Assembly: GCA_021735655.1 (NCBI GenBank) | Contig: JAIPGM010000008.1 | Coordinates: forward strand, 1 to 64,000 | Direction of reading: 5' to 3' | Source of the DNA: Candidatus Omnitrophota bacterium | GTDB lineage: Bacteria > Omnitrophota > Gorgyraeia > Duberdicusellales > 4484-171 | Length of the DNA stretch: 64,000 bases | Shown: one piece after another, positions 32,188 through 58,845 of the stretch | Layout of the letters: each line of letters begins with the position of its first letter | Position numbering within the stretch: position 1 is the stretch's first letter | Made by a program: the position numbers and the translations under genes | The notes under the pieces: generated by a model | Database searches by the model: none | Seen by the model: only the letters and a program-made list of their open reading frames with translations | Told to the model about the DNA's origin: nothing

Positions 32188-32189
32188 GA

Positions 32190-42730: not shown

Positions 42731-42762
42731 AAAAATAAGAAAAGCCTGCTCTTCAGGCAGGC
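42731..42762 (-). terminator. Rho-independent terminator for the - strand cargo operon
   Basis: - strand GCCTGCCTGAAGAGCAGGC hairpin followed by TTTTCTTATTTTT. Confidence 0.55.
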
Positions 42763-42866
42763 GCTTTCGTCAGTCTTTTATTCCGCAGTAGCGGAATAAA
42801 AAATATACGACACAATCAATAAAAGATTTAAAAAAGTAAAATAAAAATAGGTAGGCTTAATTCGAA

Positions 42867-43079
42867 TTATGCTAATCCGTAATAATATATCTCTTGGCAA
42901 GGCTCTATCTCTTCCGTCTCTTCCTTTATTCTAGCATAAGGAAGGGAATTCTCATCTATTGGGGCATATTTACCTTCTTTAGTAAGGCAAAGAAACTCAA
43001 TTAATTCCTTCTCTTTTTCATCTTTTTTAGCATATCTTTCCTTATTTCTCATAATCTCACCGCCCGAATTATACCACAT
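42867..43079 (-). CDS. Small acidic hypothetical protein
   Basis: 70-aa ORF directly downstream of and co-oriented with the protease gene. Confidence 0.35.
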   Translation of the reverse strand: MWYNSGGEIMRNKERYAKKDEKEKELIEFLCLTKEGKYAPIDENSLPYARIKEETEEIEPCQEIYYYGLA

Positions 43080-43102
43080 CTTATAGACTTATTCAAGTAA
43101 AC

Positions 43103-44305: not shown

Positions 44306-44575
44306 TTATGTTTTTATACCTTTCAAATTCCCATTGGAGACTTATTTTATCGCAACTTTACTTTTTTTCAACATAAGATTTATACTAAAAATGAGCCCCC
44401 ACTCTTACAGGTGGGGAACTCCCACAAGCTTAGATATATATCTTTGTTATAAAAAAGTCTCTACTCATCAGACAGGCGTCTTCGTCAACCTTATATTCCG
44501 CAGCAGCGGAATATTCCTATATATACCCCGCCCATTAATGACGGTATTAATTATGCTTTGCATTCATATTTGTAA

Positions 44576-45361
44576 TTATTCAAATTCAAGTCTCACAGAA
44601 GCTTTATCACATTTTTTATCACATTTATAACAATTACAATTAGAAGTGTACCACTCAATATTTTTTCGTTCTCCAGGTTTTAATGGCTCACTTCCGATAG
44701 CGTATGTATAATCAGTATTAACTACTTTACCATATTCATTTTTATAGGTAATATGAAATTTAACATTTGTTACTGGTATTTGCGAACCATTATAAATTGT
44801 AGCCTTGCCTTCTACGCTATTTGAGTAACTTGAACCAAACGACCAATCTTCAATTATAACTTTCTGTTTCGCTTCTTCAAGTAACTCATGTTTTTCCATA
44901 TCAGACTTTGAATCATCAGATATATTGTTAAGTTTGGCGTCCGCTACAAACCCATAACTGTCAGAAATCTGCCACTCTGAAAATTTTTTTCTGACGATAA
45001 AAATAGGCTTCCGTTCGAGCTTCATTCCAAAGGCGTTAATTGTCGAGCCATAAACTTGAATCCAATATTTATCCTTTTCTTTTTTTAATGTTTTTAATTT
45101 CCATTTCTCAATTTTAAAATAAGAATATTTTCCCACTAAAAATAGATTTATAGAATAACTCGTATCAAAATATTTTGAAATTTGTTCTAAATCTTGTTCA
45201 TTTAAATATTTTAAAGCAAGATTGACAGTCTTTTCTCCATTATTACTAAAGAGACTATCAATTCCTATTTTTATTGTTTCCCTATTAAAATACCCTAATA
45301 ATATAACAGCTAGTAAGAGAATAAAAATAACGATATGTTTAGCGCTTACATTAATTGTCAT
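44576..45361 (-). CDS. Membrane-anchored/secreted hypothetical protein with Cys-rich C-terminus
   Basis: N-terminal signal anchor; CNCYKCDKKCDK tail. Confidence 0.4.
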   Translation of the reverse strand: MTINVSAKHIVIFILLLAVILLGYFNRETIKIGIDSLFSNNGEKTVNLALKYLNEQDLEQISKYFDTSYSINLFLVGKYSYFKIEKWKLKTLKKEKDKYWIQVYGSTINAFGMKLERKPIFIVRKKFSEWQISDSYGFVADAKLNNISDDSKSDMEKHELLEEAKQKVIIEDWSFGSSYSNSVEGKATIYNGSQIPVTNVKFHITYKNEYGKVVNTDYTYAIGSEPLKPGERKNIEWYTSNCNCYKCDKKCDKASVRLEFE

Positions 45362-45423
45362 TAAATCACTCCTACATTTCTACATTTAATTATAATCTAT
45401 TTAACTTTCTAATAACTAACTTT

Positions 45424-45627
45424 CTATTTTTTATAATTCCAGTCCGTCATTTTATCACTTATGTATTGCTTTAGCTTTTGGTCAAAAATAATCATCATTT
45501 TAGCTTTTGAGTTTTCAGCTAAATCGGCGATTTCTTGAAAAATATTATCAATATCTGAGTTTACTTCTTCAATAATATTCTTGATCTTTTCGCTGTTGTA
45601 GCCTAGATTCATAAGGAATGAGTGCAA
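45424..45627 (-). CDS. Small hypothetical protein
   Basis: 67-aa ORF, co-oriented. Confidence 0.3.
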   Translation of the reverse strand: MHSFLMNLGYNSEKIKNIIEEVNSDIDNIFQEIADLAENSKAKMMIIFDQKLKQYISDKMTDWNYKK

Positions 45628-45771
45628 TAAATTCTCTGTTTCGCTTTTGACAAAATCAGGCCTTTCATCTAACCAGCCTTATTCAAATATATTAAACCAT
45701 CTTTCCGAAATATCCATTTGCTCTCTCATATTATCATCTTTTCATGCTAACATTTTATATTGCCTTACAGG

Positions 45772-45969
45772 TTATTCCAAACAGTTTTTTAGTTTGTTTA
45801 CGCCTACCTGCGCTTTACAGAAAGGACATATTATGCAATTTTTGTCGCTATTGAACAGCTTCTTTAAATTCTCTCGGGCAATCATTTCTTCACAATAAGG
45901 GCATTTAAGAAATTCGGAATCCATGAAACCAAAAAACCCGCCAATGAATTTAGGGTCAATAAAACTCAT
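45772..45969 (-). CDS. Small zinc-ribbon protein
   Basis: CPYCEE...CIICPFC; start overlaps the stop of the upstream HEPN-like gene (ATGA). Confidence 0.4.
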   Translation of the reverse strand: MSFIDPKFIGGFFGFMDSEFLKCPYCEEMIARENLKKLFNSDKNCIICPFCKAQVGVNKLKNCLE

Positions 45970-46529
45970 TGAGTATGGATGCTCTTTTTATTCTTTATCC
46001 AGTCAGATGGAATTTTCCCATAGAGCCTATATATTTCAAGAATTAATCCTTGAACTGTTTCTAAAACACAATATACCGCCCGTGATTCGGGCCATCCCAT
46101 AATAGGTTTAGTGTCATCTGATACGTTCAAATGAACAAGGGCATTTCGTATATTTCTAGCTTCTTTGAAGTCGTTCATTAGATTTCTACTTATATTTTTA
46201 CCATTACAAATTTTTGGAATCCACCTTTGCAATTTTTTTCCCAATGAAACAAATCTTTCTTTTCTTTCTCCTGTAAGGAATTCCTGCTTTTGTTTTGGCA
46301 AAACTTCATTATTTGATACGTATTCTTGAGCAAATTCATTTATAATAGCTTCCAATGCTGTAAAAGCAAAAAGAATAGAAGCAGCCGAAAATCTTCTATA
46401 TTTTAACCTGCCATCTTCTGGTTTAATTTCTTCCGTTCCAAGTGCAGGCATCCCTTGAAATTCTTCATTCATTCTTTCTGCAAAATATTTAGCGTCATTT
46501 AAAAATAATTCGTGCCAATAGTTCCACAT
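45966..46529 (-). CDS. HEPN-like (Rx4H) domain protein, Abi-like
   Basis: Alpha-helical 187-aa protein with ARNIRNALVHL (R-x4-H) motif near the C-terminus. Confidence 0.35.
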   Translation of the reverse strand: MWNYWHELFLNDAKYFAERMNEEFQGMPALGTEEIKPEDGRLKYRRFSAASILFAFTALEAIINEFAQEYVSNNEVLPKQKQEFLTGERKERFVSLGKKLQRWIPKICNGKNISRNLMNDFKEARNIRNALVHLNVSDDTKPIMGWPESRAVYCVLETVQGLILEIYRLYGKIPSDWIKNKKSIHTQ

Positions 46530-46702
46530 TATTTTAGTCGATACGGGTCATTACAAATTTAGTAAAAATAACGCTAAAGCGTAGTATTAAACCTAGAATC
46601 CACCCAGAAATTCCATTTCATTTAAAAACCATATTATTTGTTAAGTTTTATTACGCAATTTTGATAATTAGCTAACCATCTATTCAATCAGTTTACGCCA
46701 AA

Positions 46703-47803
46703 TCACAAATAAGTGCTAATTAACTTTGACAATTCACCCCTATCTATTAACTTTATATTATTAGAACTCGCCAACTTTATAGCCGAACGAGTAAACTCAT
46801 TCGTTGTAATTACCATACCTTTATCTGCTTTGTAATGCTTAATTGCCGCAACAACTTCCTGCACTCCTCTATTAGTTACTTTATTATTATATCGTTTTGC
46901 CTGCACTACGATTTTTTCTCCGAATTTTTCAACAACTAAATCTGCCCCTTGATCGCCAGACAACTTTGTATTTTCTACCTTATATCCCATTTTTTTAAAA
47001 AGTATATTTAGAAAATTTTCAAATTCATATCCTGTAGCTGAATCTAAATCGTATATCGTTAAAGGTTGATGCTGGCTATTGTTCAGTTGTTTTTCAAAAT
47101 GTTCAAGCTTTAGCTTTTGCCTTAATTCATCTATTCGCTGCCTCAACACTTCTTTATCAACAGGATAATGTTTCTCCTGTAATAGACGTTGAAAAGAATC
47201 CATATAAAGCAAGTAGTTTTCACCACATAACTCCAGAAAACGCTTTAAAAAAGATTCTATTCCATCAGGATTATTATGCATCATCTTAGCTTTGAAATTC
47301 ATATAATTCTGTTTATCTAATTCACTATCTATTAAACCCCTTAATTCTTCAATATCAAAATTAAAACCTTTTTCAGCCATCAAATCTCTCAAGGTATTAA
47401 GTTCTTCACCGGGTATATTAAGGCTGCAAGAAGTATAGTTGTGTTTTGCTGAAAAGTTTTTTATATATTTGTAACTTTCACTGGAAAGCAACCTTTCTCC
47501 CTCTTTCTTAAATTCTTGTAATGCAAATTGTCTATTTATACGCCATACAATCCATGACACCAATGAAACAAATAATAGTAGAAAGAAAGGTATTGGAAAT
47601 GTTCCGACCAGAGCTATAACTAAAATTCCAACCAAAATTGCAATTGCTGTTACCTTTCCTATATTATCATCCAAAACATTCAAAACGTCCTTCCAGTTTG
47701 AACCTGGCAAATCACACAACTTGATTCGTACAAAGATAGCACTGGCAATAATTCCGGAAAAAATTCCTATATATGCTAAAATATTTTGAGAAATTGAATC
47801 CAT
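46703..47803 (-). CDS. Membrane-anchored restriction-endonuclease-like protein (N-terminal TM helices + C-terminal Mrr_cat domain)
   Basis: C-terminus aligns with Mrr catalytic domain: LFKKMGYKV...SGDQGADLVV...VVQAKRY...GVQEVVAAI...KGMVITTNEFT..AIKLA. Confidence 0.6.
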   Translation of the reverse strand: MDSISQNILAYIGIFSGIIASAIFVRIKLCDLPGSNWKDVLNVLDDNIGKVTAIAILVGILVIALVGTFPIPFFLLLFVSLVSWIVWRINRQFALQEFKKEGERLLSSESYKYIKNFSAKHNYTSCSLNIPGEELNTLRDLMAEKGFNFDIEELRGLIDSELDKQNYMNFKAKMMHNNPDGIESFLKRFLELCGENYLLYMDSFQRLLQEKHYPVDKEVLRQRIDELRQKLKLEHFEKQLNNSQHQPLTIYDLDSATGYEFENFLNILFKKMGYKVENTKLSGDQGADLVVEKFGEKIVVQAKRYNNKVTNRGVQEVVAAIKHYKADKGMVITTNEFTRSAIKLASSNNIKLIDRGELSKLISTYL

Positions 47804-47917
47804 ATTTTTATCCTAAATAATATTCAAAATCACCTGCATTCTATCAATTTAAGCGAATTTTTGCAAGATTTCTAGTTTATCGAGCAGCTTAAACCAATCC
47901 GCCTAAAAATACAAAAA

Positions 47918-47960
47918 ACCTTCGCCATTTCTAACGAAGGTTTTCTTTCTTTTAGCGTCC
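47918..47960 (-). terminator. Bidirectional-looking rho-independent terminator
   Basis: CCTTCGCCATTTCTAACGAAGG hairpin with T-runs on both sides. Confidence 0.5.
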
Positions 47961-48087
47961 TGGATTTAGTCCTTCCAACACGGGACTTTTGCCTGATTGT
48001 CATTTTCAATATAGCTCTGGTTTCTGATTGTGTCAAGGGAAAAAGTCGTTGCTATTCGCTACCCGCCTATCTTATTATCCATTTTAT

Positions 48088-48573
48088 CTAATTATTATTC
48101 GATATTTCAGATTGTGGGAAAGTTACTGGAATAGAAAATTTCACTCTATGGATTGATCCTGTATTTTGCTCTGAAGAACCAGTAGCTTTGCCACCAGCTT
48201 TGACTGTGTAAATTTTGGCAGTTGCATTGATTTCTGCAGAAGAATTCTGATTTTCATTAATCGTTAAAGCTACATCAAATTCTATTGCTTCCATATAGCG
48301 AAGCTTATAATCTTGTTGCTTCCTCTCTTTTAAGGTATTTCCGACAAAGCCATAAACAGGATTTATCTCTCCGCCCGTTTCTTTAGTTTTTTCTTGTGCG
48401 TTTTTGATCCCGTGAAATATTTGCGATAAGGTTTCGGAAATAAAATCTTGTAATTTCATGTTTACTCCTTTTCGTTTTTGTTTTTTGTTTCGAATGGCAA
48501 TAATAAAACTTCCTAAAAAAATAATGAAAGCACCGATTGAAATACTTATAATGATGTTACTTTTTTCCACCAT
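48088..48573 (-). CDS. Single-TM membrane protein, hypothetical
   Basis: N-terminal TM helix plus soluble domain; no motif recognised. Confidence 0.4.
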   Translation of the reverse strand: MVEKSNIIISISIGAFIIFLGSFIIAIRNKKQKRKGVNMKLQDFISETLSQIFHGIKNAQEKTKETGGEINPVYGFVGNTLKERKQQDYKLRYMEAIEFDVALTINENQNSSAEINATAKIYTVKAGGKATGSSEQNTGSIHRVKFSIPVTFPQSEISNNN

Positions 48574-48620
48574 ATTTTTTATTTATAAATTTATTTTTTC
48601 AACTAGCATTAATGAATTCA

Positions 48621-48827
48621 TTAATAAACCAATTCGTTCACCTTAACGTTAAGAACCTTAGCAATTTTCAAAAGAGTTTTAATTGTGGGGTTATCATTTT
48701 TTCCCACTTCTATTTTCGCAAGGGTAGTATGAGTGACATCAGCAAGCTTAGATAACTTATCTTGAGATAGCCCCTGTATTTTTCGTAACTTCTTTATTCT
48801 TTTCCCAATTTTTGCTGCACTTGACAT
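48621..48827 (-). CDS. XRE-family (Cro/C1-type) HTH transcriptional regulator
   Basis: LRKIQGLSQDKLSKLADVTHTTLAKIEVG... Confidence 0.75.
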   Translation of the reverse strand: MSSAAKIGKRIKKLRKIQGLSQDKLSKLADVTHTTLAKIEVGKNDNPTIKTLLKIAKVLNVKVNELVY

Positions 48828-48969
48828 TTGGTATTATATTGTTACAATTATATTCTATGGATAATACTACCTAAAACTTACTTATATTTTAGCAATTTTG
48901 ACATCTTTTGCAAGATTTTTGCATGATAATGCTTTATATAGACAACACCGCGGAAAAATTGAAAATTCG

Positions 48970-49153
48970 TTTACAAAAAATAAAAAAATTTTCCGCCGCC
49001 GCATTAAAAATATATAGATTTTTGCGAGGGAGAGGCCGCAGGGATGCCTTATCGGCCCACGTGGGCCGATAAGGAAGACAGCAGCCGAATTCATAGGCGT
49101 TAGCGAGCACCTTCGGCTGTGTAAAAGGTTCGGACTGCGTCCCCTATACACCG
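48970..49153. repeat. 184-bp structured repeat element, copy B (inverted), immediately upstream of pilin A
   Basis: See copy A; ends 58 bp before the ATG of the pilin gene at 49212. Confidence 0.8.
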
Positions 49154-49211
49154 TTTTTACATCTACCACCTACCTATTCCAAAACTAACTCAATAGTGAT
49201 ATAATCTAACT

Positions 49212-49760
49212 ATGAGAAGAGGATTTACCTTAATCGAACTAATCGTAGTCATTGCTATTATTGCTATCTTAGCAGCAATCATTGCCCCTAATGCTTTTAA
49301 GGCTATTGAGAAGGCGAAGGTCGCTAGAGCAATTTCGGATTTCAAAACAATAAAAACAGCCTCAATATCTCTTTACGCTGATACCGGAAAATGGCCTGAT
49401 ACGAATTGGGGTGATACCCGAATTAAAGATAGCGGTTTATTTATTGATAACGGAGCAAGTTGGGATGGTCCATATTTAGAGAAAAATCCTGAACCGCATC
49501 CTTGGGGAGGAAGGTATATATTTGAAAGTGAAGATGACTGGGCTAAAAGTCCCACAGAGCCTGCTAATGGAATTGATGAATCGCTTATTGATTTTGAAGA
49601 TTACTGTATTTCTGGATCTGCAACAGGCTGTCCTGTTCCAGATAGCGCAGCAAAGAGAATTGATGAAGCAGTAGACGACGGGAATACTTCCTGGGGCGAA
49701 TTTCGCCACGGTGGCGATACCTTGTGGCTTTTAGTCTGGGATGCTTTTGAGCAACCATAG
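49212..49760 (+). CDS. Type IV pilin / T2SS GspG-like pseudopilin (paralog A)
   Basis: Prepilin N-terminus MRRG|FTLIELIVVIAIIAILAAIIAPNAF with Glu+5; WDGPY, PWGG and DDG motifs as in GspG-type pilins. Confidence 0.7.
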   Translation: MRRGFTLIELIVVIAIIAILAAIIAPNAFKAIEKAKVARAISDFKTIKTASISLYADTGKWPDTNWGDTRIKDSGLFIDNGASWDGPYLEKNPEPHPWGGRYIFESEDDWAKSPTEPANGIDESLIDFEDYCISGSATGCPVPDSAAKRIDEAVDDGNTSWGEFRHGGDTLWLLVWDAFEQP

Positions 49761-49930
49761 TTTTTATTGAAGATTATTTGAATAGCGCTAATTAATTCTA
49801 TCTATAAATCAATTCAGCTGACCACTAATCCCCACCAACCCATTTTTCCCTTGTGCCCAAATTGTGCCTGTTTCGATTCAAGTCCTTGCAATTACTTGCC
49901 TTTGAACCTTTAGTTTGTTAAACTATTTAC

Positions 49931-51313
49931 ATGCGAAAAGTATTATTCCTACTTGCTTTATTGTTAGTATTTTCCCAGCTAGCCTATTCTGAAATCATTA
50001 CTTTAAAAAATGGTAAGACCATTGATGCTCCTATCTTAGAGAGGGCAGAGGAGTATATTAAGGTTAACATTGGAGGTGTTGGGGTTAAGTATTATATGGA
50101 TGAAATAGACAGCGTCGGAAAGGATAAAAGTTTATTTAAAAATAATTATTCAAAAAAAACACCTTCTGAAATTTATAATGAAAACGCAAGTGCTGTAGTA
50201 ATGGTCGGCGCTAAAGGTTTTTTTGACACAGGGTTTAGTATTGGCGTCGGTTCAGTAATTAGTCAGGATGGCTTAGTTGTTACAAATTATCATGTATTAG
50301 GTGATTCTAATGATGTATCGATCGCCTTTGATAATGGTTCAATTTCTAAAGCAATATCTGTGGCAACTTTTGACCCAATACGTGATTTCTGCATTTTAAA
50401 AGTTAAAGGCAGTGATTTGCAGGGTGTTGAACTTGGAGATAGCGATAATCTTAAGAAGGGTGAAGCCTTAACCGTCATAACTATTGACAGTAATGATAAG
50501 CATAAAATAATGACAGGAAAGTATCTTTATCAACTAGTTGACTTAGGTAGTCGTTATTTAATGGCCGAAATTCCAACTGGCGAAGAAGGAAATAGCGGTT
50601 CACCAGTTTTTAATGAATGCGGAAAGGTTATCGGAATTTACACAAGAGGAGATCCGGAATCAAATTTAGCAAGTATTATACCTATAAATGACATAAAAGA
50701 ATATTTAAATGTGGATAAAAATTTAACTATGCATGAATTTAAGAACCTTTCGGATCAAGCTGTAGTCCTATCAACTAAAGGAAAAGTTTTTATGTTGAGA
50801 GGGGAATACCAAAAGGCCTTGGATTATTTTTATCAGGCCTTAAGTATAAATCCAGAGTGTTCATTGGCAAGTTTGGTTCTTGCTCAAGTTTACATTAAAA
50901 TGCATGAATTTTATAAAGCAGCTAATGAAATAAACAAAATTATACAAAGGTTTCCTGATGAAGTGCACCATTATATGACAATTGCTGAAATTTATAGAAA
51001 AAATTTTATGTGGGATGATTTTTTGATAGCCGTTAACAAAGCTATAGAAGTTGATCCTAGGTATAGTGATGCATATGCAGAGCTTAGTCTGTATTATTAT
51101 ATAGTGGGAAAGAGTATTGATAGGGCAATTGTTGAGGCTAAAAAGTGTATAAGTTTTAAACCAAGCAATTGCACCGCTCTTACTATTTTAATAGAAATTT
51201 ATGGGCAAAAAAATGATTGCGTTTTAGTAAAAAAATACCGAAAACAAATGGAAGATTACGGGTGTGAGATTACTAAAGAAGAAACTATTCAGGCGATTCA
51301 GAGCTGTCGATAG
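49931..51313 (+). CDS. Secreted trypsin-like (S1/Trypsin_2) serine protease with C-terminal TPR repeats
   Basis: Signal peptide; TNYHVL (His), D, GNSGSPVF (Ser) catalytic motifs; about 5 TPR-like repeats after residue 270. Confidence 0.65.
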   Translation: MRKVLFLLALLLVFSQLAYSEIITLKNGKTIDAPILERAEEYIKVNIGGVGVKYYMDEIDSVGKDKSLFKNNYSKKTPSEIYNENASAVVMVGAKGFFDTGFSIGVGSVISQDGLVVTNYHVLGDSNDVSIAFDNGSISKAISVATFDPIRDFCILKVKGSDLQGVELGDSDNLKKGEALTVITIDSNDKHKIMTGKYLYQLVDLGSRYLMAEIPTGEEGNSGSPVFNECGKVIGIYTRGDPESNLASIIPINDIKEYLNVDKNLTMHEFKNLSDQAVVLSTKGKVFMLRGEYQKALDYFYQALSINPECSLASLVLAQVYIKMHEFYKAANEINKIIQRFPDEVHHYMTIAEIYRKNFMWDDFLIAVNKAIEVDPRYSDAYAELSLYYYIVGKSIDRAIVEAKKCISFKPSNCTALTILIEIYGQKNDCVLVKKYRKQMEDYGCEITKEETIQAIQSCR

Positions 51314-51529
51314 GTATTTATTATGTGTGCCCCAATCGTGCCCATCTAAAGCGAAACCACAGGATAATAGACGAAAGCAGAAGATAACAGGTAGAATCAT
51401 TTTTTTCCTAAAACTCACCGTCAACACTGCATAATCATTGATAAATAAAGAGTATTTAAATTACATCTAATAGAATCCCTGCTTTTTTGTTTTATATCTA
51501 CCATCTACCCTATTCCAAAATTATTCCAA

Positions 51530-52189
51530 GTGTGGTACAATCTAACCGTTGCAATAGAATTAGAATATAATTTAAAAATGTTTAAGAGTATTGTTAAAGA
51601 GTTAAGGCATCATGCTCCGTTTACTTTTTTAGGAGCTTTCTTGGGAATCGTTTTTATGTTTTTATTTCGTAATATTTCTCAGGAAGCTTCACATGATCTT
51701 TTTTATGTTTTTCACCCCCTACATGTATTATTAAGTGCTTTAGCTACAGCTTCAATGTATAAATTACATACTTGCCCCAAAGGTAAAGGCCCTTGCAATT
51801 TACCACTTTTGCTTGTAGTTGGTTATTTCGGTGCCATTGGCGTTGCCACTTTCAGTGATTCATTAATGCCTTATTTTGGGGAATTTTTACTGAAAATGCC
51901 TTATCGAGAAATGCATATAGGTTTTGTTGAGAAATGGTGGTTAGTGTCAGCGGTAGCAATAGTCGGTGTTATTATCGCTTGTTTTAATCCTTCGACAAAG
52001 TTTCCTCATGCGGCCCATGTATTGATTAGTACTTGGGCATCTTTGTTCCATATTATGATGGCTTCTGGCGGGAGTATTAGCTGGGTGGTGTATATTGGGA
52101 TATTTTTGTTTTTATTCCTTGCGGTGTGGCTTCCGTGTTGCATTAGTGATATCGTTTTCCCGCTTTTATTTGTAAAAAGAAAAACATAG
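51530..52189 (+). CDS. Polytopic membrane protein, hypothetical
   Basis: 5-6 TM helices; no recognised motif. Confidence 0.4.
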   Translation: MWYNLTVAIELEYNLKMFKSIVKELRHHAPFTFLGAFLGIVFMFLFRNISQEASHDLFYVFHPLHVLLSALATASMYKLHTCPKGKGPCNLPLLLVVGYFGAIGVATFSDSLMPYFGEFLLKMPYREMHIGFVEKWWLVSAVAIVGVIIACFNPSTKFPHAAHVLISTWASLFHIMMASGGSISWVVYIGIFLFLFLAVWLPCCISDIVFPLLFVKRKT

Positions 52190-52345
52190 CTCTTTCCCGT
52201 AAATAATTTCTATAATTAGTCAAGAAAAATCTTATAAATTTTGTAAATTTATAATTAAAAAAGTTTGCAAAGTTAGATTAATATTGTTAAAATATTCGAT
52301 CTTACGGAATTTATAAATTATTTTTTTAAAAAAAAGGGGGCCACG

Positions 52346-52858
52346 ATGAAAGATAGCTATCCATATTTCAGGGATCCGCGAGCTTTGGAAGAAATCAGAA
52401 AACATAAATGGATTGAAAGCCAAAAACAGAATCAGGAAGTCAGCTTTGCCACAGCTGCCTTAGATTGGATTAACAACTATGGTGCTCAGTGGAAAGAAAT
52501 TCATGCTGACGAGAGTAAGGATAATCGTATTTTTATTGAACAGAGGAAGTATCGCCGGTTCAGGTTAACTCAGCTTATTAAATTGGTGAAAGATAATATT
52601 ACTTTTTTAGCCGAAGGCATTAATATTAGTTTTTTTGGTTTGACTTGCCGGGCTAGAAAATTCTTACCGGTAGGTAGTGTGATGGATGTTTATGTGCCGA
52701 TTGAGCAGAAAAGCGGAGAAAAGATTATCTGCAGAGGCACAGTAGAGAGGGCTATCCAAGTTAAATTGGAAAATTATGAGGTATTTTTAAAGTTTGGTCC
52801 AGATTGTCAGAGGCAGATAGAAAATTGCGAATATTTTAGGGGCCAAGCGGCGGCATAA
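52346..52858 (+). CDS. PilZ-domain protein with N-terminal helical domain
   Basis: RKYRRFR (RxxxR) and NISFFG (NxSxxG) in the C-terminal half. Confidence 0.5.
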   Translation: MKDSYPYFRDPRALEEIRKHKWIESQKQNQEVSFATAALDWINNYGAQWKEIHADESKDNRIFIEQRKYRRFRLTQLIKLVKDNITFLAEGINISFFGLTCRARKFLPVGSVMDVYVPIEQKSGEKIICRGTVERAIQVKLENYEVFLKFGPDCQRQIENCEYFRGQAAA

Positions 52859-52926
52859 TAAAAAAAAGAAATTTCTTTTTTTTATTTTATTCGAAGCGGC
52901 ATTTTACTTGTAAAGTAAACCCTGTC

Positions 52927-54489
52927 GTGTTAAAATTTACCATCATGAAAGGCATTCTTTATTGTCGAGATATTTCTTCAAATAAATCAAAATCGCTCTT
53001 CTTTCCCCACAAAACCACCACTAAATTACAAGATGTCTATGCTTCTGACTGTCCTTTGGTCATTTTTGACGAAAAATTTATCAAAAAAAGTAAAAAGTTA
53101 GATAATTCGCGCCTTAAAAGTAAGGTTTGTTTTGTGCATTTTACCCAAGAGCATAAGGATAATTTAAAAATAGTTAAACAGCTTGGTTTTTTTGATTACT
53201 TTAGTGATCAAGATTCAAAGAGTTTTGTTTCTTTCAAGTTTCTAAGGGCCGAGAAGCTAATTAAACTTAATCGAAAGGTGTATAGCCTAGAGAAACAAGT
53301 TAATAAAAAAGATGCTGAAATCGAAAACATCACTTTGATCGATCCGATAACCGGGTGTTATAACTGGCGGTATCTTTCAAACCGGATAACTCAGGAAATT
53401 AATCGAGCTCGTCGACATTTCTACAGCATTTCTTTTATTGCTGTCGATATTGATCATTTTACCAGGATCAATGAACTCTATGGCGTAAAAGTAGCCGATA
53501 CGATTATTAAGGAATTTGTCGGTATTTTAGGCAAAGCATTGCGGACTGAGGACATTCTGGCCCGCTGGCGAGAGGATGAGTTTTTTATTATTGCGCCTCA
53601 CTTAGAAGCCAAAGATAGCTATATGGTTGCTAAAAGAATAGGCGAGAAAATTAGCACACATAAGTTTAAATATCATAAAGTTGCGATATGTCTAAAGGCT
53701 AGTTTAGGCGTTACCACTTCTCCTGAAGATCATATCTTTAGTGTTCGCGATATTGTTAATACTTTGAATGGTTGTTTAGCTTCGGCTAAACGGAAGGGGG
53801 GCAACACGATTGTTTTATATTCTCAGGCAGATACTACCTTGGCGCCGGAAAAGCACAAGAAGGCTAATACGTCTGAATTACAGGGTAAAATAGACAAGAT
53901 GAACAAGGTGATGAATCGAGATTTGCTTGATACTATTTATGGGTTTGCTAGGACAATCGAGGCAAAAGATTCTTACACCGGAAAACATGTAGAATATACT
54001 GCTGGTTTGGCCGAAGAAGTTGCAAAAGCCTTACGGTTATCAACCAAAGAAGTGGAAGATGTTAGGCATGCTGCGGTTTTGCATGATTTAGGAAAGATTG
54101 CTATCGATAAAAGCATTCTTTCTAAAGCAGGTAGCCTTAGTCCCGAAGAAAGGGAGTCGATTAGGACTCATCCGGCTATTGCTGCAGAGATTTTACGCGA
54201 GATACATGGTCTCAGAGGGGCTATCCCGGCGATTCTTTATCATCATGAGCGTTATGATGGAAAGGGCTATCCTTTGGGGTTAAAGGGCGATGATATACCT
54301 TTAAATGCTCGGATAGTTGCCGTTGCTGATGTCTATCAGGCGCTTATCTCTGATCGGCCGTATCGTAAAGCTTATGTTAAGAAAAAGGCTTTAGAGATTA
54401 TTAAATCAGAGGCTGGCAAACAGTTTGATCCTAAAATAGTAAGAATGTTTTTACGAATTATCAAGAGGATCGATGCGCAAGAAAGATGA
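52927..54489 (+). CDS. Degenerate GGDEF domain + HD-GYP phosphodiesterase
   Basis: GGDEF fold with RWREDEFFI in place of GG(D/E)EF; HD motif LHDLGKIAI; HHERYDGKGYPLGL HD-GYP signature. Confidence 0.7.
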   Translation: MLKFTIMKGILYCRDISSNKSKSLFFPHKTTTKLQDVYASDCPLVIFDEKFIKKSKKLDNSRLKSKVCFVHFTQEHKDNLKIVKQLGFFDYFSDQDSKSFVSFKFLRAEKLIKLNRKVYSLEKQVNKKDAEIENITLIDPITGCYNWRYLSNRITQEINRARRHFYSISFIAVDIDHFTRINELYGVKVADTIIKEFVGILGKALRTEDILARWREDEFFIIAPHLEAKDSYMVAKRIGEKISTHKFKYHKVAICLKASLGVTTSPEDHIFSVRDIVNTLNGCLASAKRKGGNTIVLYSQADTTLAPEKHKKANTSELQGKIDKMNKVMNRDLLDTIYGFARTIEAKDSYTGKHVEYTAGLAEEVAKALRLSTKEVEDVRHAAVLHDLGKIAIDKSILSKAGSLSPEERESIRTHPAIAAEILREIHGLRGAIPAILYHHERYDGKGYPLGLKGDDIPLNARIVAVADVYQALISDRPYRKAYVKKKALEIIKSEAGKQFDPKIVRMFLRIIKRIDAQER

Positions 54490-54931
54490 AGCCTACATGT
54501 ATGAAGCTCTCAAACAGGCTCACTATGCATTTGATGAAGATGAGGTGCCGGTGGGGGCAGTTATTGTTTGTAACGATAGAATAATCGCTAGAAGCTACAA
54601 CCAGGTCGAAAAATTAAAAGATCCTACCGCTCATGCTGAGATGATTGCTATTACTCAAGCGGCAAGTTTTTTAAAATCAAAGTGGCTTAAAAAATGTTCT
54701 TTGTATGTTACGATAGAGCCGTGTTCGATGTGTGCCGGAGCCTTAGTCTTAAGTCGCATCGATAAGGTTGTTTTTGGCGCAAAAGATCCAAAGACTGGAG
54801 CTTTCGGGTCAAAGCTAGATGTAAATGCCTTAAGTCTTAATCATAAGTTAAAAGTTAAAAATGGTATTTTGGAGAATGAATGTGCCATGATTTTACAGGA
54901 TTTTTTTAAAATTAAGAGGGAGACAAAATGA
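54473..54931 (+). CDS. tadA: tRNA-specific adenosine deaminase
   Basis: HAEMIAI and PCSMCAGAL zinc-binding deaminase motifs, ~150 aa. Confidence 0.85.
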   Translation: MRKKDEAYMYEALKQAHYAFDEDEVPVGAVIVCNDRIIARSYNQVEKLKDPTAHAEMIAITQAASFLKSKWLKKCSLYVTIEPCSMCAGALVLSRIDKVVFGAKDPKTGAFGSKLDVNALSLNHKLKVKNGILENECAMILQDFFKIKRETK

Positions 54932-55587
54932 GTATGAAGAGCCTTAGGGTAATTTTTATTACTATCGTAGTTTTTGTTTTTTCTTTAGAATATGCTCAAG
55001 CTCGTAACCGTCAGGGTGGCGGTAGCTCATCAGGCTCAGGTTATACTCCAAGAACTCGCACCAAGGTGAGTTCTCAGTCGTCACAAAAGAATAGCAATAA
55101 AGATAAGAGCAAAAGTGTTAATAAAGAAGAGGGGAGTGAATCTTTGAAGTGGGGAAAGTCAGATGATTCGATAAAGGTAAAGTCAAATCCTCAGCAGAAG
55201 GAAAATATACTAAAGCTTAAAGAAGATGCAAAAGCGATTAAAGATAAATCAAATATAACCCAAGATCAGAAGGATAAAATAAAGTCTGATTTTTCAGCTA
55301 TTATGGATGGCGCACAAAAACCCAGCGAGGAATCAGTTAATAATCTGGTTGGTGATCTTACCAGGGCAGCAGAAGACGGTAAGCTAGGCCCAAAGGAGGC
55401 TATGAAAATTTCTGAAAGTGTTTCTGGGGTTTTAGAGAGTGCAAATATATCTGAAGAAGAAGTTTGGGCGCTTAAAAAAGATGTTGAGGCTGTTGCTGAG
55501 GCCTCTAACCTTAATCAGCAAGACACAGACTTAATAATAGCTGACGTTGAGGCTATCATTGATACAGCTAGAGCTAATAGTAAGTAG
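54928..55587 (+). CDS. Secreted low-complexity (S/K/D/E-rich) hypothetical protein
   Basis: Signal peptide; internal imperfect repeats. Confidence 0.4.
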   Translation: MSMKSLRVIFITIVVFVFSLEYAQARNRQGGGSSSGSGYTPRTRTKVSSQSSQKNSNKDKSKSVNKEEGSESLKWGKSDDSIKVKSNPQQKENILKLKEDAKAIKDKSNITQDQKDKIKSDFSAIMDGAQKPSEESVNNLVGDLTRAAEDGKLGPKEAMKISESVSGVLESANISEEEVWALKKDVEAVAEASNLNQQDTDLIIADVEAIIDTARANSK

Positions 55588-55606
55588 TAAGTGTATGAGG
55601 TACCCT

Positions 55607-56176
55607 ATGAAAAAATCATTTACCCTAATCGAACTAATTGTAGTTATTGCAATCATTGCCATTCTTGCCGCAATCATCGCCCCAAATGCTTTTAAAGCTG
55701 TTGAGAAGGCGAAGATTTCTGAAGCAATAGCCGATGTTAAAACTTACAAAACTGCCATTGGTACCTTATATGCTGATACCGGACATTGGGTAGTAGAAGG
55801 CGCTGTTCCTCCCCTAGGTGACATTATCTATCCAGATTCTGCTAATAATGATTTAATAACTAATCTTAATGGTTATTTTGGTTGGGATGGACCTTATGTT
55901 CAAAAGATTAAAGCCAAAAATCCCTGGAAGGGTTGGTATGTTTTTCAATCTAATGATGTCGCAAGAGGTTTACAATCAGAAATTTGGCTTGATTTTGAAG
56001 ATGCTTGTTATCCGCTAGAGGGTAGTGTCAGCCTTGATTGCCCTATACCGGATAAAGCCAAAAATAAAATAGATGCTACCATTGACGATGGAGATCCCTC
56101 GGACGGAAATGTACAAGAAGGACTAGGAGGGTCAGCCGGTGATTTTTCTTGGTTTTTAGTTTGGGATGCATACTAA
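55607..56176 (+). CDS. Type IV pilin / GspG-like pseudopilin (paralog B)
   Basis: MKKS|FTLIELIVVIAIIAILAAIIAPNAF (Ser at -1), GWDGPY, NPWKGWY, KIDATIDDG; start placed at the internal Met of track ORF 55547. Confidence 0.7.
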   Translation: MKKSFTLIELIVVIAIIAILAAIIAPNAFKAVEKAKISEAIADVKTYKTAIGTLYADTGHWVVEGAVPPLGDIIYPDSANNDLITNLNGYFGWDGPYVQKIKAKNPWKGWYVFQSNDVARGLQSEIWLDFEDACYPLEGSVSLDCPIPDKAKNKIDATIDDGDPSDGNVQEGLGGSAGDFSWFLVWDAY

Positions 56177-56224
56177 GTTGTAACTACCTAACGGTTAATC
56201 TACTTTCTAACCTCTTTGCGAAAT

Positions 56225-56510
56225 TTATCAAAAATGCTATGATTAAAAATCATTAATAGAGGGGGGTGCCGAGCTCGGTTTAAGGCGGCGGTTTGCTAAA
56301 CCTTTTCGACTCTTTTTCAATAAACTTAATCCTTTTTCAATTTATCCTCTAAAATATTAACTTTTCATACTTATTGCTGTTTGTAGGAATTTTGTATGCT
56401 TATATCTGTTTGACTATTTTTTGGACACCGACCCCCATCCCTTCCAATTTGGTCGCAGATATAGTTATAAGGACTGTTTTTGGTGCCTGAATTAGATTTT
56501 GGGAAGCCCG
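56225..56510 (+). repeat. ~290-bp direct repeat unit R1: tRNA-type promoter + 5' fragment of tRNA-Ser(GCU) + conserved leader
   Basis: Shares TATGATT -10, the first ~44 nt of the tRNA at 58750 (gaggggggtgccgagctcggtttaaggcggcggtttgctaaacc) and ~200 bp of downstream sequence with R2. Confidence 0.75.
56259..56302 (+). pseudogene. Truncated tRNA-Ser(GCU) 5' fragment (acceptor to anticodon arm only)
   Basis: Near-identical to 58750..58793 but diverges after the anticodon stem; no T-arm or CCA. Confidence 0.7.
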
Positions 56511-56595
56511 TTCTGAAACCGTTTTTACAAAGAGGCATTTTTGCTGTTATAGTGGTCCTTTTTAGGTGTTATACTTTAATGATAGGTTTAATTGT

Positions 56596-57297
56596 ATGAA
56601 GAAAAATATTTTTTCCTTAATAATTTACCTTTGTTTGTCTTTGGCTTCGGTAACGGTTTATGCTGGTCCTTTTGAGAAATTGACTAGTAGTGGAAGACCA
56701 TCCGTTAACTCAGGCCAAAATAAGTCAACTCAAGCATCACATCCACCTGCCAGAAGTAATCGTTTACTTGAAAGGAGTTCAACAAAAGCACAAAGTCCAA
56801 AAACAGCAATTAAGGTAAAAGGAGGCTTGGGGGGTTCTAGTTTTAGGCATACAGTTCAGGAAGGGCTTAATAAAGTATCTAAAGTGCATCCGGAATTGCT
56901 CGATGCGAAGGGTGTTGTCATACTTCGTGAGAAACTAGAGCCTGGCGAAGCTATGCGGGCCTATACTGCGGAGAATTTAATAGCTGTGTCACCCCGAACC
57001 GCTTCGGAAGATAATAAGTACCTTTTTGCTGCAGCTTTGGGGCATGAGTTAGATCACGTATTAAATCCTCAAAAAGGTGAGGTTTTAGATCAACAGGGAC
57101 GCATAAAACTGAAAGTGGCGGTAGCTATGGAAAAACGAGCTATCGGCAAGGAAATAGATATTCTTTCTGCGTACTTAGAAGTAGCCAGTAAAAAAGACCG
57201 TGAGATAATGCAACTGCGGATAAATTTCCTGAAAGCTGCGGATGGGACGCATAATAAGGAAAGGTATGAAAGGCTTGGCATTCCTTTTGTCGATTAG
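56596..57297 (+). CDS. Secreted protein with HExxH (GHELDH) zinc-metallopeptidase-like motif
   Basis: Signal peptide from the internal Met (MKKNIFS..VYA); HELDH motif; otherwise unrecognised. Confidence 0.4.
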   Translation: MKKNIFSLIIYLCLSLASVTVYAGPFEKLTSSGRPSVNSGQNKSTQASHPPARSNRLLERSSTKAQSPKTAIKVKGGLGGSSFRHTVQEGLNKVSKVHPELLDAKGVVILREKLEPGEAMRAYTAENLIAVSPRTASEDNKYLFAAALGHELDHVLNPQKGEVLDQQGRIKLKVAVAMEKRAIGKEIDILSAYLEVASKKDREIMQLRINFLKAADGTHNKERYERLGIPFVD

Positions 57298-57404
57298 CGG
57301 TAATGTAAAATAAGTCTGACTTTATTTTTTTCTGACCCTCATCCCAATTGACACATTTTTCTTATTCGACCAATTCCTATCAAAGTAGTATCTATTTTCT
57401 TTTC

Positions 57405-57715
57405 AAAACTTACCAAAAATGCTATAATTAAAAATCATTAATAGATGAGGGGTGGCCGAGCTCGGTTTAAGGCGGCGGTTTGCTAAACCTCCATAGTCCT
57501 TTTTCAATAACCCAATAAATTCAATCCTTTTTTAATTTATCTTCTAAAGTATTAACTTTTTATACTTACCGCTGTTTGTAGGAATCTTGCATGTTTGTAT
57601 CTGTTTGGCTATTTTTTGGACATTTTCTGGTCACCGACCCTTACTCTTTCTGACTTGGTTATGGGTATAGTTATAAGGGCTATTTTCGGCACTTGAAGTA
57701 AATTTTGGAAAAATC
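57405..57715 (+). repeat. ~310-bp direct repeat unit R2 (second promoter + tRNA-Ser 5' fragment + leader), immediately upstream of pilin C
   Basis: Also shares ~70 bp upstream of the promoter (aattgacacattt...atcaaagta) with the intact tRNA-Ser(GCU) locus at 58640. Confidence 0.75.
57447..57489 (+). pseudogene. Truncated tRNA-Ser(GCU) 5' fragment
   Basis: gaggggtggccgagctcggtttaaggcggcggtttgctaaacc then divergence. Confidence 0.7.
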
Positions 57716-57752
57716 TATTTTTAGTGGTAAAATATTCCAAAGGAGGTATTTT

Positions 57753-58337
57753 ATGAAAAAATCATTTACTTTAATCGAGTTAATCGTAGTAATCGCTATA
57801 ATTGCTATCTTAGCAGCAATCATCGCTCCCAATGCATTTAAGGCTATTGATAAAGCAAAAGTTTCAGCTAGCCTGGCTTATGCAAAGAACATAAAAACAG
57901 CAATTTTGTCTTTGTATTCCGATACTGGGCATTTTTCGGGATGGGTGGCCGGCATGACGGCTGGTCAATATAATTATGTGAAACTTGACGATGATTATAA
58001 CCCTAGTTGGCAGCCTAGCAATTTATTGAGTGATGAATCTGGTTGGACTGGTTGGGATGGTCCCTATATGGAGCAACTGACAGGTCGACATCGATGGGGC
58101 GGAACTATCATGCTTCTCTATTATCCTATTCCAGCATCTTGGGCTAATGGTCTTGGTCTTTATCGTTGGTTTCCGTGCTATGGGAATTCAGCTAATAATT
58201 GTGGAGTATCTGAGACGAATTTAAAGAAAATAGATGCTACCGTAGATGATGGTGTACCTACCACTGGTAACCATAGAGTCTATTATGACGCCACGTATTC
58301 ACAATGGTATTCGCTAGAAACGTTAATTAACTTCTAA
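57753..58337 (+). CDS. Type IV pilin / GspG-like pseudopilin (paralog C)
   Basis: MKKS|FTLIELIVVIAIIAILAAIIAPNAF, GWDGPY, RWGG, KIDATVDDG; start at the internal Met of track ORF 57705. Confidence 0.7.
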   Translation: MKKSFTLIELIVVIAIIAILAAIIAPNAFKAIDKAKVSASLAYAKNIKTAILSLYSDTGHFSGWVAGMTAGQYNYVKLDDDYNPSWQPSNLLSDESGWTGWDGPYMEQLTGRHRWGGTIMLLYYPIPASWANGLGLYRWFPCYGNSANNCGVSETNLKKIDATVDDGVPTTGNHRVYYDATYSQWYSLETLINF

Positions 58338-58409
58338 TGATAGGTTCAGTCGATAGCGGTAAAGAGGAAAATATAGGTTTTTGTTTAATAACTAGGGGAG
58401 ATTGTTAAC

Positions 58410-58535
58410 ATGAGAATATTTTTATTATTAGCTATAGTTGCGATAATGGCTTGTTCTTCGCAAGATAAGAGGTCACCGGTGGATCAATTAGAACCAGAGC
58501 TCATTGACCCTGCGGCTGGGCTTGACAATATGTAA
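58410..58535 (+). CDS. Possible 41-aa lipoprotein (below the ORF-track size cut-off)
   Basis: MRIFLLLAIVAIMAC-SSQ lipobox-type signal, GGGGAG RBS 8 nt upstream. Confidence 0.3.
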   Translation: MRIFLLLAIVAIMACSSQDKRSPVDQLEPELIDPAAGLDNM

Positions 58536-58699
58536 CCTTAGAATAACATTAAAGGTATGATGTCTTTAATGAACCAACGGTTTCTTTATACCTTCTTTTT
58601 AACTATAGTATTAAAGATATTTTAGGAAAACTTTTTAGCCTAATTGACACATTCTTTTCTATTTGACCAAGTCTTATCAAAGTATGATCCATCTTCTAA

Positions 58700-58735
58700 A
58701 TTCTTTCCAAAATTAACCAAAAATGTTATAATTGA
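58700..58735 (+). promoter_or_regulatory. Promoter of tRNA-Ser(GCU)
   Basis: TATAAT at 58726..58731, 18 nt before the tRNA 5' end, AT-rich upstream; the same promoter block is duplicated in R1 and R2. Confidence 0.45.
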
Positions 58736-58749
58736 AAATCATTAATAGA

Positions 58750-58845
58750 GGAGGGGTGGCCGAGCTCGGTTTAAGGCGGCGGTTTGCTAAACCGTTGTAC
58801 AGGTGAAAACCCGTACCTGGGGTTCAAATCCCCACCCCTCCGCCA
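58750..58845 (+). tRNA. tRNA-Ser (anticodon GCU), class II
   Basis: Acceptor GGAGGGG/CCCCTCC, anticodon stem GCGGT/ACCGT with loop TTGCTAA, long variable-arm hairpin, T-arm TGGGG-TTCAAAT-CCCCA, encoded CCA. Confidence 0.8.

Follow-up and report, generated by a model that had tools for sequence, protein, structure and literature searches.

Three type IV pilin genes in tRNA-bounded insertions of a Candidatus Omnitrophota genome, from a family in which serine commonly precedes the cleavage site

A set of three type IV pilin genes, here named A, B and C, is carried by a 64,000-nucleotide (nt) stretch of DNA from a Candidatus Omnitrophota bacterium (assembly GCA_021735655.1, contig JAIPGM010000008.1). 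The whole stretch is referred to as the window, and coordinates are positions in it, read on the forward strand. Loci fetched from other genomes for comparison are denoted by L numbers and database proteins by P numbers. The class III (prepilin) N-terminus is found in three plus-strand open reading frames (ORFs), all of them complete genes:

49212 to 49760, plus strand: pilin A, 182 amino acids, leader MRRG, Gly at -1 (ORF list; Pfam N_methyl and T2SSG above cut-off).
55607 to 56176, plus strand: pilin B, 189 amino acids, leader MKKS, Ser at -1 (ORF list, Pfam).
57753 to 58337, plus strand: pilin C, 194 amino acids, leader MKKS, Ser at -1, GGAGG ribosome-binding site upstream (ORF list, Pfam).

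Scanning the window with a DNA pattern back-translated from FTLIELI returned exactly these three sites without mismatch; two further matches carried two mismatches, where 0.97 loose hits per window are expected by chance. Each N-terminus has the short basic leader, the stretch of about 21 hydrophobic residues, the Phe+1 and the Glu+5 of a class III signal, in the form M(R/K)(R/K)x before the cleavage site and FTLIELIVVIAIIAILAAIIAPNAF after it. The mature residues +1 to +27 (FTLIELIVVIAIIAILAAIIAPNAFKA) are identical at 27 of 27 positions across the three proteins, and the junction reads MRRG/F in A and MKKS/F in B and C. The starts of B and C are placed at ATG 55607 and ATG 57753 because GAGG (B) or GGAGG (C) lies upstream and because Met at -4 is the commonest arrangement in the family (71 of 120 homologues); the TTG codons that a mechanical ORF list gave further upstream were rejected in favour of these ATGs. 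In a 60-sequence family alignment WDGPY, PWxG and IDxxxDDG are conserved columns, as are a nearly invariant cysteine pair and the acidic D-x3-DDG loop. Identity between the head domains is 45% (A and B), 36% (A and C) and 33% (B and C); the heads are divergent yet homologous, and of one fold.

A first-pass annotation of the same DNA had reported three GspG/PilA-type pilins at these positions, with Gly at -1 in A, Ser at -1 in B and C, a near-identical class III signal and helix, and conserved core motifs. The ORFs, the Pfam and NCBIfam profiles, the Foldseek matches and the alignment columns bear out all of this, and its statement that the window lacks pilus assembly genes also holds, since Pfam scans of the large ORFs of the window gave no T2SSE, T2SSF, Peptidase_A24, PilM-Q or secretin. 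Its description of the C-terminal domains as essentially unrelated does not survive the 33-45% identity of the heads.

The three proteins score 28-33 bits against PF07963 N_methyl (cut-off 21.2) and all exceed 16.3 for TIGR02532, and Pfam PilW_C matches across the family. An AlphaFold2 model of pilin B, built from the 60-sequence alignment, has a predicted local distance difference test (pLDDT) score of 92.3 and consists of a 52-residue N-terminal helix (residues 7-58) and a four-stranded sheet, so that a long N-terminal helix packed on an antiparallel beta-sheet and a cysteine pair, the hallmarks of the pilin fold, are both present. When this model was compared with the Protein Data Bank (PDB) by Foldseek, the best structural matches were PilA1 and PilW of Clostridioides difficile, with GspG pseudopilins next; the probability was 1.0 to PilA1 structures, with a template modelling (TM) score of 0.63-0.65 normalised to the PilA1 target 6t8s. 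A profile search of PDB sequences matched only the N-terminal helix of many pilins. Profiles and model together place A, B and C among type IV pilins that resemble PilA1, PilW and GspG, short of certified GspG. An identity as ComGC-type competence pilins was rejected, the scores of 27-31 bits being far under the 75-bit cut-off.

Pilin B is 100% identical to P0001, a Candidatus Omnitrophica protein on a 69.9-kb contig of a metagenome-assembled genome (MAG), and has 722 homologues at E<=1e-5, of which the named ones are mostly annotated Omnitrophica. Taxonomy follows MAG labels throughout. A genome scan confirmed at least 406 relatives in species-representative genomes, and scattered copies number at least 21 in the MAG JAHKAJ01 and at least 11 in CAZFML01. 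The three genes of the window are thus a local sample of a genome-wide pilin expansion. Single-copy pilins in related genomes would have spoken against the pilin sets that the first-pass annotation had proposed, and the opposite was seen, the relatives being multi-copy. Looking up exact proteins on other contigs added little: P0002 gave only an IS110/Imm53 context, and P0058, P0105 and pilin C gave no record (for pilin C, none on other contigs).

Omnitrophota-type pilins were also seen in loci labelled 'uncultured Planctomycetia' (L004-L007, L009, L012, L029, L031) and Atribacterota (L019, L021, L032), and the PilD of L005, a Planctomycetia-labelled MAG, is 54-63% identical to Omnitrophota proteins; these labels are probably errors or the result of bin contamination. 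In L001 (5180-6980) an orphan family pilin with Val at -1 has ComEA-like and ComEC-like genes 1 kb downstream and a PilT-like ATPase 10 kb away, a hint that some members are connected with DNA uptake.

Glycine at -1 is held to be a near-universal requirement in bacterial prepilin processing. Among the best 120 of the 722 homologues, however, the -1 residue is Ser in 60, Gly in 35, Ala in 9, Val in 5, Asn in 3 and others in 8 (including F, H, T, C and L); small residues, in the order Ser > Gly > Ala, occupy 87% of the positions. Entropy at -1 is 2.03 bits, like that of the leader positions, and lies between 0 and 0.8 bits, mostly below 0.4, from +1 to +25, with Phe+1, Glu+5 and the whole helix almost invariant across the family. 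A second census, on the independent set of fetched loci, gave the following counts of Gly at -1:

Omnitrophota-type loci, orphan family pilins: Gly in 13 of 55, otherwise S 30, A 6, V 2, F, T, Y, H.
Omnitrophota-type loci, family pilins adjacent to pilB: Gly in 10 of 14, otherwise S 3, A 1.
Omnitrophota-type loci, other pilin-like ORFs: Gly in 3 of 11, otherwise S 5, T, Y, A.
Firmicutes and other loci, family pilins: Gly in 14 of 16, otherwise A 2.
Firmicutes and other loci, other pilin-like ORFs: Gly in 80 of 83, otherwise A 3.

Gly at -1 thus occurs in 26 of 80 pilin-like ORFs of Omnitrophota type against 94 of 99 in Firmicutes and other loci (Fisher p=5e-20), and within the Omnitrophota type in 13 of 55 orphan copies against 10 of 14 adjacent to pilB (p=0.0013). 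On a rough neighbour-joining tree of 170 tips the -1 state changes at least 60 times. The pilus operon of L005 encodes PilD, PilB, five tandem family pilins, minor pilins, PilC and PilM; the tandem pilins have S, S, S, A and G at -1, with Ser/Ala pilins directly after pilB, and one minor pilin has Thr. The -1 residue of minor-pilin-like ORFs at Omnitrophota loci can likewise be S, T, A or Y. Given the 60 of 120 homologues, the locus counts and the L005 operon, Ser at -1 is the norm of the lineage and not a defect of B and C. The first-pass annotation had remarked on it in these two genes; it is the commonest -1 residue across the Omnitrophota family. The published PilFind motif [GAS]-x4-[DE], which permits any of the three small residues at -1 (PMC3244431), is matched by A, B and C, and a strict Gly(-1) rule is matched by A and not by B or C. 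Ala, Gly or Ser also stands at -1 in the sites of the archaeal peptidase PibD that one paper lists (PMC4371748).

The prepilin peptidases of the lineage were found by tblastn with Firmicutes PilD at three loci:

L005, 2731 to 3555: PilD homologue.
L007, 7745 to 8557: PilD homologue.
L013, 2 to 799: PilD homologue, on one contig with five pilins that have Y, V, S, S and G at -1.

A 'PilD' picked by regular expression in L014 was dropped as it had no Pfam hit. Among the best 120 database matches to the L005 PilD (P0121-P0240), both prepilin peptidase Pfam domains are present in 120 of 120, and every match with a named source is from Omnitrophota. The motif GLGDVDF (canonical GGGDVKL) occurs in 112 and IPYLPYL (canonical IPFGPF) in 117, both CxxC pairs are found in 119, and the four cysteines and both catalytic aspartates are kept in the clade. 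The Asp motifs lie 85-95 residues apart, an insertion of about 25-30 residues when aligned with Firmicutes PilDs. By these sequence features the Omnitrophota PilDs are a tight, phylum-distinct clade.

Pilins B and C lie together in an insertion, of which the features are as follows:

54916 to 58749, plus strand: lineage-specific insertion of 3.8 kb between a TadA-like deaminase gene and tRNA-Ser(GCT) (synteny with L134 and L122).
54928 to 55587, plus strand: ORF219, predicted secreted Ser/Lys-rich protein, first gene of the insertion (ORF list).
56198 to 56305, plus strand: truncated copy 1, promoter and 5' part of tRNA-Ser(GCT) (tRNA 56262-56305; repeat families D2/D6, BLAST).
56306 to 56505, plus strand: left-arm region 1, common to 57493-57711 (repeat families D3/D5).
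56596 to 57297, plus strand: ORF243, cargo of the first unit, with signal peptide and HELDH (HExxH) motif (translation).
57383 to 57492, plus strand: truncated copy 2, promoter and 5' part of tRNA-Ser(GCT) (tRNA 57447-57492; repeat family D4, BLAST).
57493 to 57711, plus strand: left-arm region 2, directly upstream of pilin C (repeat families).
58687 to 58845, plus strand: intact tRNA-Ser(GCT) with its promoter (tRNA 58750-58845; ARAGORN; Rfam tRNA, 53.7 bits).

The content of the insertion is ORF219, pilin B, ORF243, pilin C and the two truncated tRNA copies. Two relatives, L134 (82% nt identity) and L122 (70%), have tRNA-Ser(GCT) within about 60-100 nt of the end of the deaminase gene, and L122 is syntenic on both sides, being collinear with the window from the membrane protein and PilZ genes through dnaX; because of this empty site in both relatives, 54.9-58.75 kb is a lineage-specific insertion. 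The window promoter of tRNA-Ser(GCT) is unlike the ancestral spacer of L134 and L122. ORF219 has no Pfam hit and no homologue in the fetched loci, and ORF243 no significant Pfam hit. Pilin B starts 20 nt past the end of ORF219, and the spacing points to co-transcription of the two.

A module of promoter and tRNA 5' part occurs three times (56198-56305, 57383-57492 and 58687-58796), and only the last runs into an intact tRNA. Each copy extends through ...GGTTTGCTAAACC, reaching 3 nt beyond the anticodon loop, and the truncated copies share this breakpoint; neither ARAGORN nor Rfam recognised copy 1 as a tRNA. Over promoter and tRNA 5' half, identity to the intact gene is 80% in copy 1 and 92% in copy 2, and the greater decay of copy 1 fits the entry of new units at the intact gene. 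A sigma-70-like promoter is intact in the truncated copies, upstream of ORF243 and of pilin C. After each truncated copy comes a common arm of about 200 nt (77% identity between arms over about 199 nt), and the gene beyond the arm is unrelated between the two, ORF243 in one and pilin C in the other. The distal block of the arms is also present in L013 and L017.

At the distal end of the arms stands a non-coding block, GTATAGTTATAAGGACTGTTTTTGG (window 56459-56483 and 57665-57689; L013 10946-10970; L017 about 5690-5720), with an extended -10 element (TGnTATAAT) 40-75 nt downstream of it and no match in Rfam. A general role of this block as a pilin-upstream motif was rejected, as only three hits at four or fewer mismatches were found in the window and the first 83 fetched loci. 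For the repeat arms as a whole, Rfam gave only a chance snoRNA hit (E=0.54).

Pilin A belongs to a second tRNA-bounded unit, interrupted on its left by an island:

40585 to 40675, plus strand: tRNA-Ser(GGA) (ARAGORN; 92% identical to the L011 tRNA).
40676 to 49153, minus strand: island of 8.5 kb between tRNA-Ser(GGA) and pilin A, not in L011.
49177 to 49205, plus strand: promoter-like element of pilin A (TTCCAA, 17-nt spacer, TGATATAAT), ending 6 nt before the ATG (sequence).
49931 to 51313, plus strand: trypsin-like protease with tetratricopeptide (TPR) repeats, sharing the tRNA-bounded unit of pilin A, on its downstream side (Pfam).
51473 to 51546, plus strand: degenerate 3'-end remnant of tRNA-Ser(GGA), GAATCCCTGC, at 51473-51482, with the post-tRNA promoter repeat; right boundary of the pilin A unit (repeat family D8; BLAST to L011 10690-10796).

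The whole-window Rfam scan at gathering threshold did not report tRNA-Ser(GGA). In L011 an orthologue of pilin A (85% head identity) starts 48 nt after tRNA-Ser(GGA); beyond it come 20 nt that repeat the tRNA 3' end, then the same promoter and another pilin. The island encodes, by Pfam, a large serine recombinase (40541-42109), a ClpP/SDH-like protease, Mrr and a helix-turn-helix (HTH) protein. The recombinase, the only one in the window, overlaps tRNA-Ser(GGA) with its 3' end on the opposite strand; a homologue of 23% identity lies near two pilins in L022. Inverted repeats of 184 nt (42273-42456 and 48970-49153, 96% identity) end 58 nt upstream of pilin A, with CCTTATCGGCCCACGTGGGCCGATAAGG, a perfect 28-bp palindrome, inside each arm. 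The recombinase gene itself lies between the copies of a second inverted repeat, 33 nt long and perfect (40670-40702 and 42243-42275), and GC skew flips across the island. The repeats could be those of an invertible segment or of an att-site rearrangement.

No Shine-Dalgarno sequence precedes the ATG of pilin A; the AGTGATATAATCTAACTATG of its promoter is also kept in L011 and resembles the tRNA-Ser(GCT) promoter. The arrangement suggests a leaderless mRNA for pilin A, driven by a tRNA-like promoter. General scans of 48.6-58.9 kb were uninformative, both for sigma-70 promoters (40 promoter-like sites against 31.5 expected) and for terminators (3 terminator-like sites against 8.6 expected), and a structured GC-rich region upstream of pilin A has no Rfam match.

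The same layout occurs in other genomes. In L013 an intact tRNA-Phe is accompanied by a 100% copy of its first 37 nt, ending at the anticodon and with a similar upstream promoter region, and between the two lie an arm and a trypsin-like cargo gene. L017 has a decayed 5' half of tRNA-Phe, an arm homologous to that of L013 and a pilin as cargo, and L008 has tRNA-Glu, a pilin, a 53-nt copy of tRNA nt 23-75 and another pilin. A pilin start within 70 nt downstream of a tRNA was found in three cases against 0.05 expected (P=2e-5). A, B and C all lie in tRNA-bounded insertions. Of the features of an accretion array, direct repeats of partial tRNA and empty sites in relatives are present here, and an element-encoded integrase is absent. 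A secreted trypsin-like protease recurs beside orphan pilins, its homologue in L013 (11035-12500) being the cargo of the tRNA-Phe unit.

The interpretation that we favour, with a probability of roughly 0.65, is that A, B and C are alternative pilus subunits of an expanded Omnitrophota-wide family, carried on tRNA-linked mobile cassettes. The paralogs would replace one another or co-polymerise as subunits for a single type IVa pilus machine (PilB, PilC, PilM, PilD) encoded elsewhere, because the N-terminal helix, which contacts the machinery and packs the filament core, is near-invariant and the heads are divergent; alternative heads would give the cell alternative pilus surfaces. The clade-specific PilD would accept Ser, Ala and perhaps more at the P1 position, and the -1 residue may tune processing efficiency for each paralog, given the excess of Gly in the pilin adjacent to pilB. 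The scatter of the copies would follow from their carriage as small tRNA-targeting units of 0.9-2.3 kb, which lack a recombinase gene, are inserted in or beside tRNA genes and are, or were, presumably mobilised in trans by site-specific recombinases. The B/C insertion would then record units that integrated one after another at the anticodon loop, each with a promoter and tRNA 5' half of its own; pilin C and ORF243 would stand behind captured tRNA promoters. The pilin A unit would sit at the 3' flank of tRNA-Ser(GGA).

Several observations weigh against this interpretation. The insertion should have left the ancestral spacer and a tRNA 5' half beside the deaminase gene, and its left end has neither; the 1.2-1.3-kb units hold a cargo ORF only, with no recombinase inside them. 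A metagenome scan with a 24-mer from the anticodon arm of tRNA-Ser(GCT) returned 54 loci, the source of the empty-site relatives, all of them single intact tRNAs with no arrays and no nearby pilins, and two scans of viral contigs with the arm motifs gave no hits. The PilB, PilC and PilD evidence comes from relatives' loci, not from the source genome. About 13% of family members have a bulky or beta-branched residue at -1 (V, H, Y, F, L, N, T, C), and we know of no characterised prepilin peptidase that accepts such residues. Ruminococcus PilDs are also non-canonical (ELGDTLL/ELGDTIL, not GxGDxKL), with pilins that are all Gly(-1), and the association between the PilD motif change and relaxed -1 specificity is a correlation only. 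Furthermore, Ser at -1 abolishes cleavage in two experimentally tested systems, so that the first-pass annotation was right to take Ser(-1) as a residue poorly cleaved by the peptidases tested: in PilE1 of Streptococcus sanguinis G-1A is processed whereas G-1S is not and is dominant-negative, and equivalent results are cited for Pseudomonas aeruginosa, where bulkier residues block PilD processing (PMC6497953).

These processing data also speak for the alternative that the non-Gly(-1) pilins (B, C and most orphans) remain uncleaved and outside any filament, as bitopic inner-membrane proteins with a periplasmic head that could serve as binding proteins, decoys or dominant-negative regulators of pilus assembly. 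The -1 position is as variable as the leader, as if unselected, and the enrichment of Gly beside pilB points the same way, as do the members with V, H, Y, F or L at -1; the idea applies especially to the bulky 13%. However, a simple anchor would not need the near-invariant Phe+1, Glu+5 and helix, which matter for methylation or filament packing, and neither the Ser/Ala pilins directly after pilB in L005 nor the minor-pilin-like ORFs with S, T, A and Y are expected under it. The 87% of small residues looks like a relaxed but real rule, in line with the [GAS] of PilFind (PMC3244431) and the A/G/S of PibD (PMC4371748). We regard this alternative as unlikely, though it keeps some weight.

An objection of comparable standing concerns the cassettes, and it too seems to us improbable, at around one chance in a handful. 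The modules of promoter and tRNA 5' half could be local duplications of a strong promoter or leader, co-opted for neighbouring genes, and not cassette scars. Such an origin would suit the missing recombinase, the absence of an ancestral 5' half beside the deaminase gene, the intact sigma-70-like promoter ahead of ORF243 and pilin C, and the lack of further arrays in the metagenome scan. It accounts less well for the identical breakpoint of the two truncated copies, for an age order (80%, 92%) that fits serial insertion, for cargo that is unrelated between units, or for the clean empty sites of L134 and L122, and the recurrence of the layout at tRNA-Phe in L013 and L017, where the arms are homologous and the cargo differs, argues for insertion of cassettes.

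An identity of the three proteins as major pseudopilins (GspG) in type II secretion is very unlikely. They share with GspG (TIGR01710, PF08334) the class III signal, the WxGPY and PWG motifs and a small alpha-beta head; the NCBI name of P0001 is 'type II secretion system protein GspG', TIGR01710 is the best NCBIfam match, and GspG structures are among the Foldseek matches. The acidic C-terminal loop of the family is reminiscent of the GspG calcium site. Pfam T2SSG (PF08334) passes for A (25.4 against a cut-off of 21), fails for B (16.6) and gives no hit for C. However, the TIGR01710 scores of 67.0 (A), 45.9 (B) and 41.2 (C) all fall below the cut-off of 88.85 bits, the closest solved folds are Clostridioides type IV pilins, and the heads are larger (about 150 amino acids). 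Relatives' operons encode PilB, PilC and PilM, the window has no gsp operon genes, and at least 21 copies in a genome are unlike a single gspG. Published surveys assign such clusters to type IVa pili (PMC10066038).

A near-identical N-terminus with divergent heads had led the first-pass annotation to propose antigenically variable or functionally specialised pilin sets. The N-terminal tracts of the paralogs were compared. In the 81 nt that encode +1 to +27, A and B differ at 13 positions, A and C at 10 and B and C at 18; every differing codon is synonymous, the changes lying mostly at third positions, and the longest identical runs between paralogs are 11-23 nt. No conversion tracts are present, and purifying selection on the peptide, not gene conversion, is indicated by these differences and short runs. 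Pilin A has an orthologue in JAHKAJ01 with 85% head identity, and the nearest relatives of B and C (50-55%) are likewise in other genomes; since each is closer to pilins of other genomes than to the other two, the paralogy is old. An exchange of head segments on the model of Neisseria pilE/pilS, with gene conversion acting through the common 5' region, is thus scarcely credible here, in spite of the constant N-terminus and variable head common to both systems and of a recombinase island whose inverted repeats end just upstream of pilin A, as the Neisseria mechanism needs silent partial copies and common DNA tracts, whereas A, B and C are all complete with their own translation signals and the window holds no promoterless partial pilin copies. 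Of the two ideas in the first-pass annotation, antigenic variation by recombination between copies falls with the missing conversion tracts, and a specialised set is the most reasonable.

Cyclic di-GMP (c-di-GMP) genes are dense in the window, with two PilZ genes, one HD-GYP gene and one GGDEF-HD-GYP gene (6170-6550, 39339-40526, 52346-52858 and 52927-54489). A functional link to the pilins was considered and rejected, as the genes that lie between the pilins (PilZ and GGDEF-HD-GYP) are ancestral neighbours found also in pilin-less relatives; their adjacency is probably coincidental. Elsewhere, 29145-36623 encodes two FabA-like dehydratases, a ketoreductase, three ketosynthase-like genes and a flavin amine-oxidase-type oxidoreductase, with a response regulator interleaved and histidine kinases flanking; the cluster is syntenic with L011 and resembles an aryl-polyene or unusual-lipid biosynthesis locus. 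The ORFs at 2663-4237 (524 amino acids) and 14158-17364 (1068 amino acids) have no Pfam hit at E<=1e-5.

Among known systems, Firmicutes (Moorella, Desulfofundulus, Clostridium) have pilins with the same N-terminus (FTLVELLVVIAII..APNAFKAIEK), as tandem copies in pilB/pilT/pilD operons. At -1 these carry Gly or, rarely, Ala; their leaders are longer, and they lie inside the pilus operon, whereas the Omnitrophota pilins have mostly Ser at -1 and leaders of 3-5 residues, and are mostly dispersed. The best functional analogue is PilA1-PilA6 of Haloferax volcanii, six pilins encoded away from the assembly genes and near-fully conserved in their hydrophobic domain; each is able to serve as the major subunit, and PibD cleaves after Ala, Gly or Ser (PMC4371748); one machine, dispersed subunits and a relaxed -1 would be common to both. 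However, the H. volcanii peptidase is archaeal and has no methyltransferase domain, whereas Omnitrophota PilD keeps the bacterial two-domain form, so the likeness is one of analogy and not homology.

For the insertions, the systems to compare are tRNA-integrated islands, tandem accretion arrays of non-autonomous cis-mobilizable elements (CIMEs) and the variable pilA-tRNA-Thr locus of P. aeruginosa. Partial-tRNA repeats, empty sites, stacked units and pilin cargo beside a tRNA are shared with them. Unlike in the usual tRNA islands, it is the promoter and 5' half that are duplicated at tRNA-Ser(GCT) and tRNA-Phe, not the 3' end, and the units span 0.9-2.3 kb, with one or two genes and no integrase.

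Omnitrophota are ultra-small and probably host-attached or predatory, and type IV pili are thought to be central to them (PMC10066038). Published surveys of the phylum report type IVa pilus clusters and make no mention of the -1 residue or of tRNA cassettes. Three pilins, as first framed, are ordinary for this phylum; the leads are the non-Gly -1 with a distinct peptidase and the cassettes with tRNA 5' halves. Taken further, and only tentatively, an integron-like economy of surface-protein genes is possible in Omnitrophota, though we think it less probable than its opposite: recombinase-less cassettes, each with a pilin, a protease or another exported protein, would insert serially at tRNA genes, frequently in the anticodon loop, keeping the tRNA functional by the promoter and tRNA 5' half that they carry, and would supply each genome with a library of at least 20 pilus subunits that fit one machine by way of the invariant N-terminal helix, with a GLGDVDF-clade PilD that does not need Gly(-1).

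A phylum with a majority of Ser at -1 and a distinct PilD clade that is easy to clone is a natural experiment on the P1 specificity of GxGD-type prepilin peptidases, and pilin predictors restricted to Gly would miss most pilins of this lineage. If mobile, the single-gene units with tRNA 5' halves would be an unusual form of integrative element, and a large mobile repertoire of pilus subunits could bear on the host range and attachment of these bacteria.

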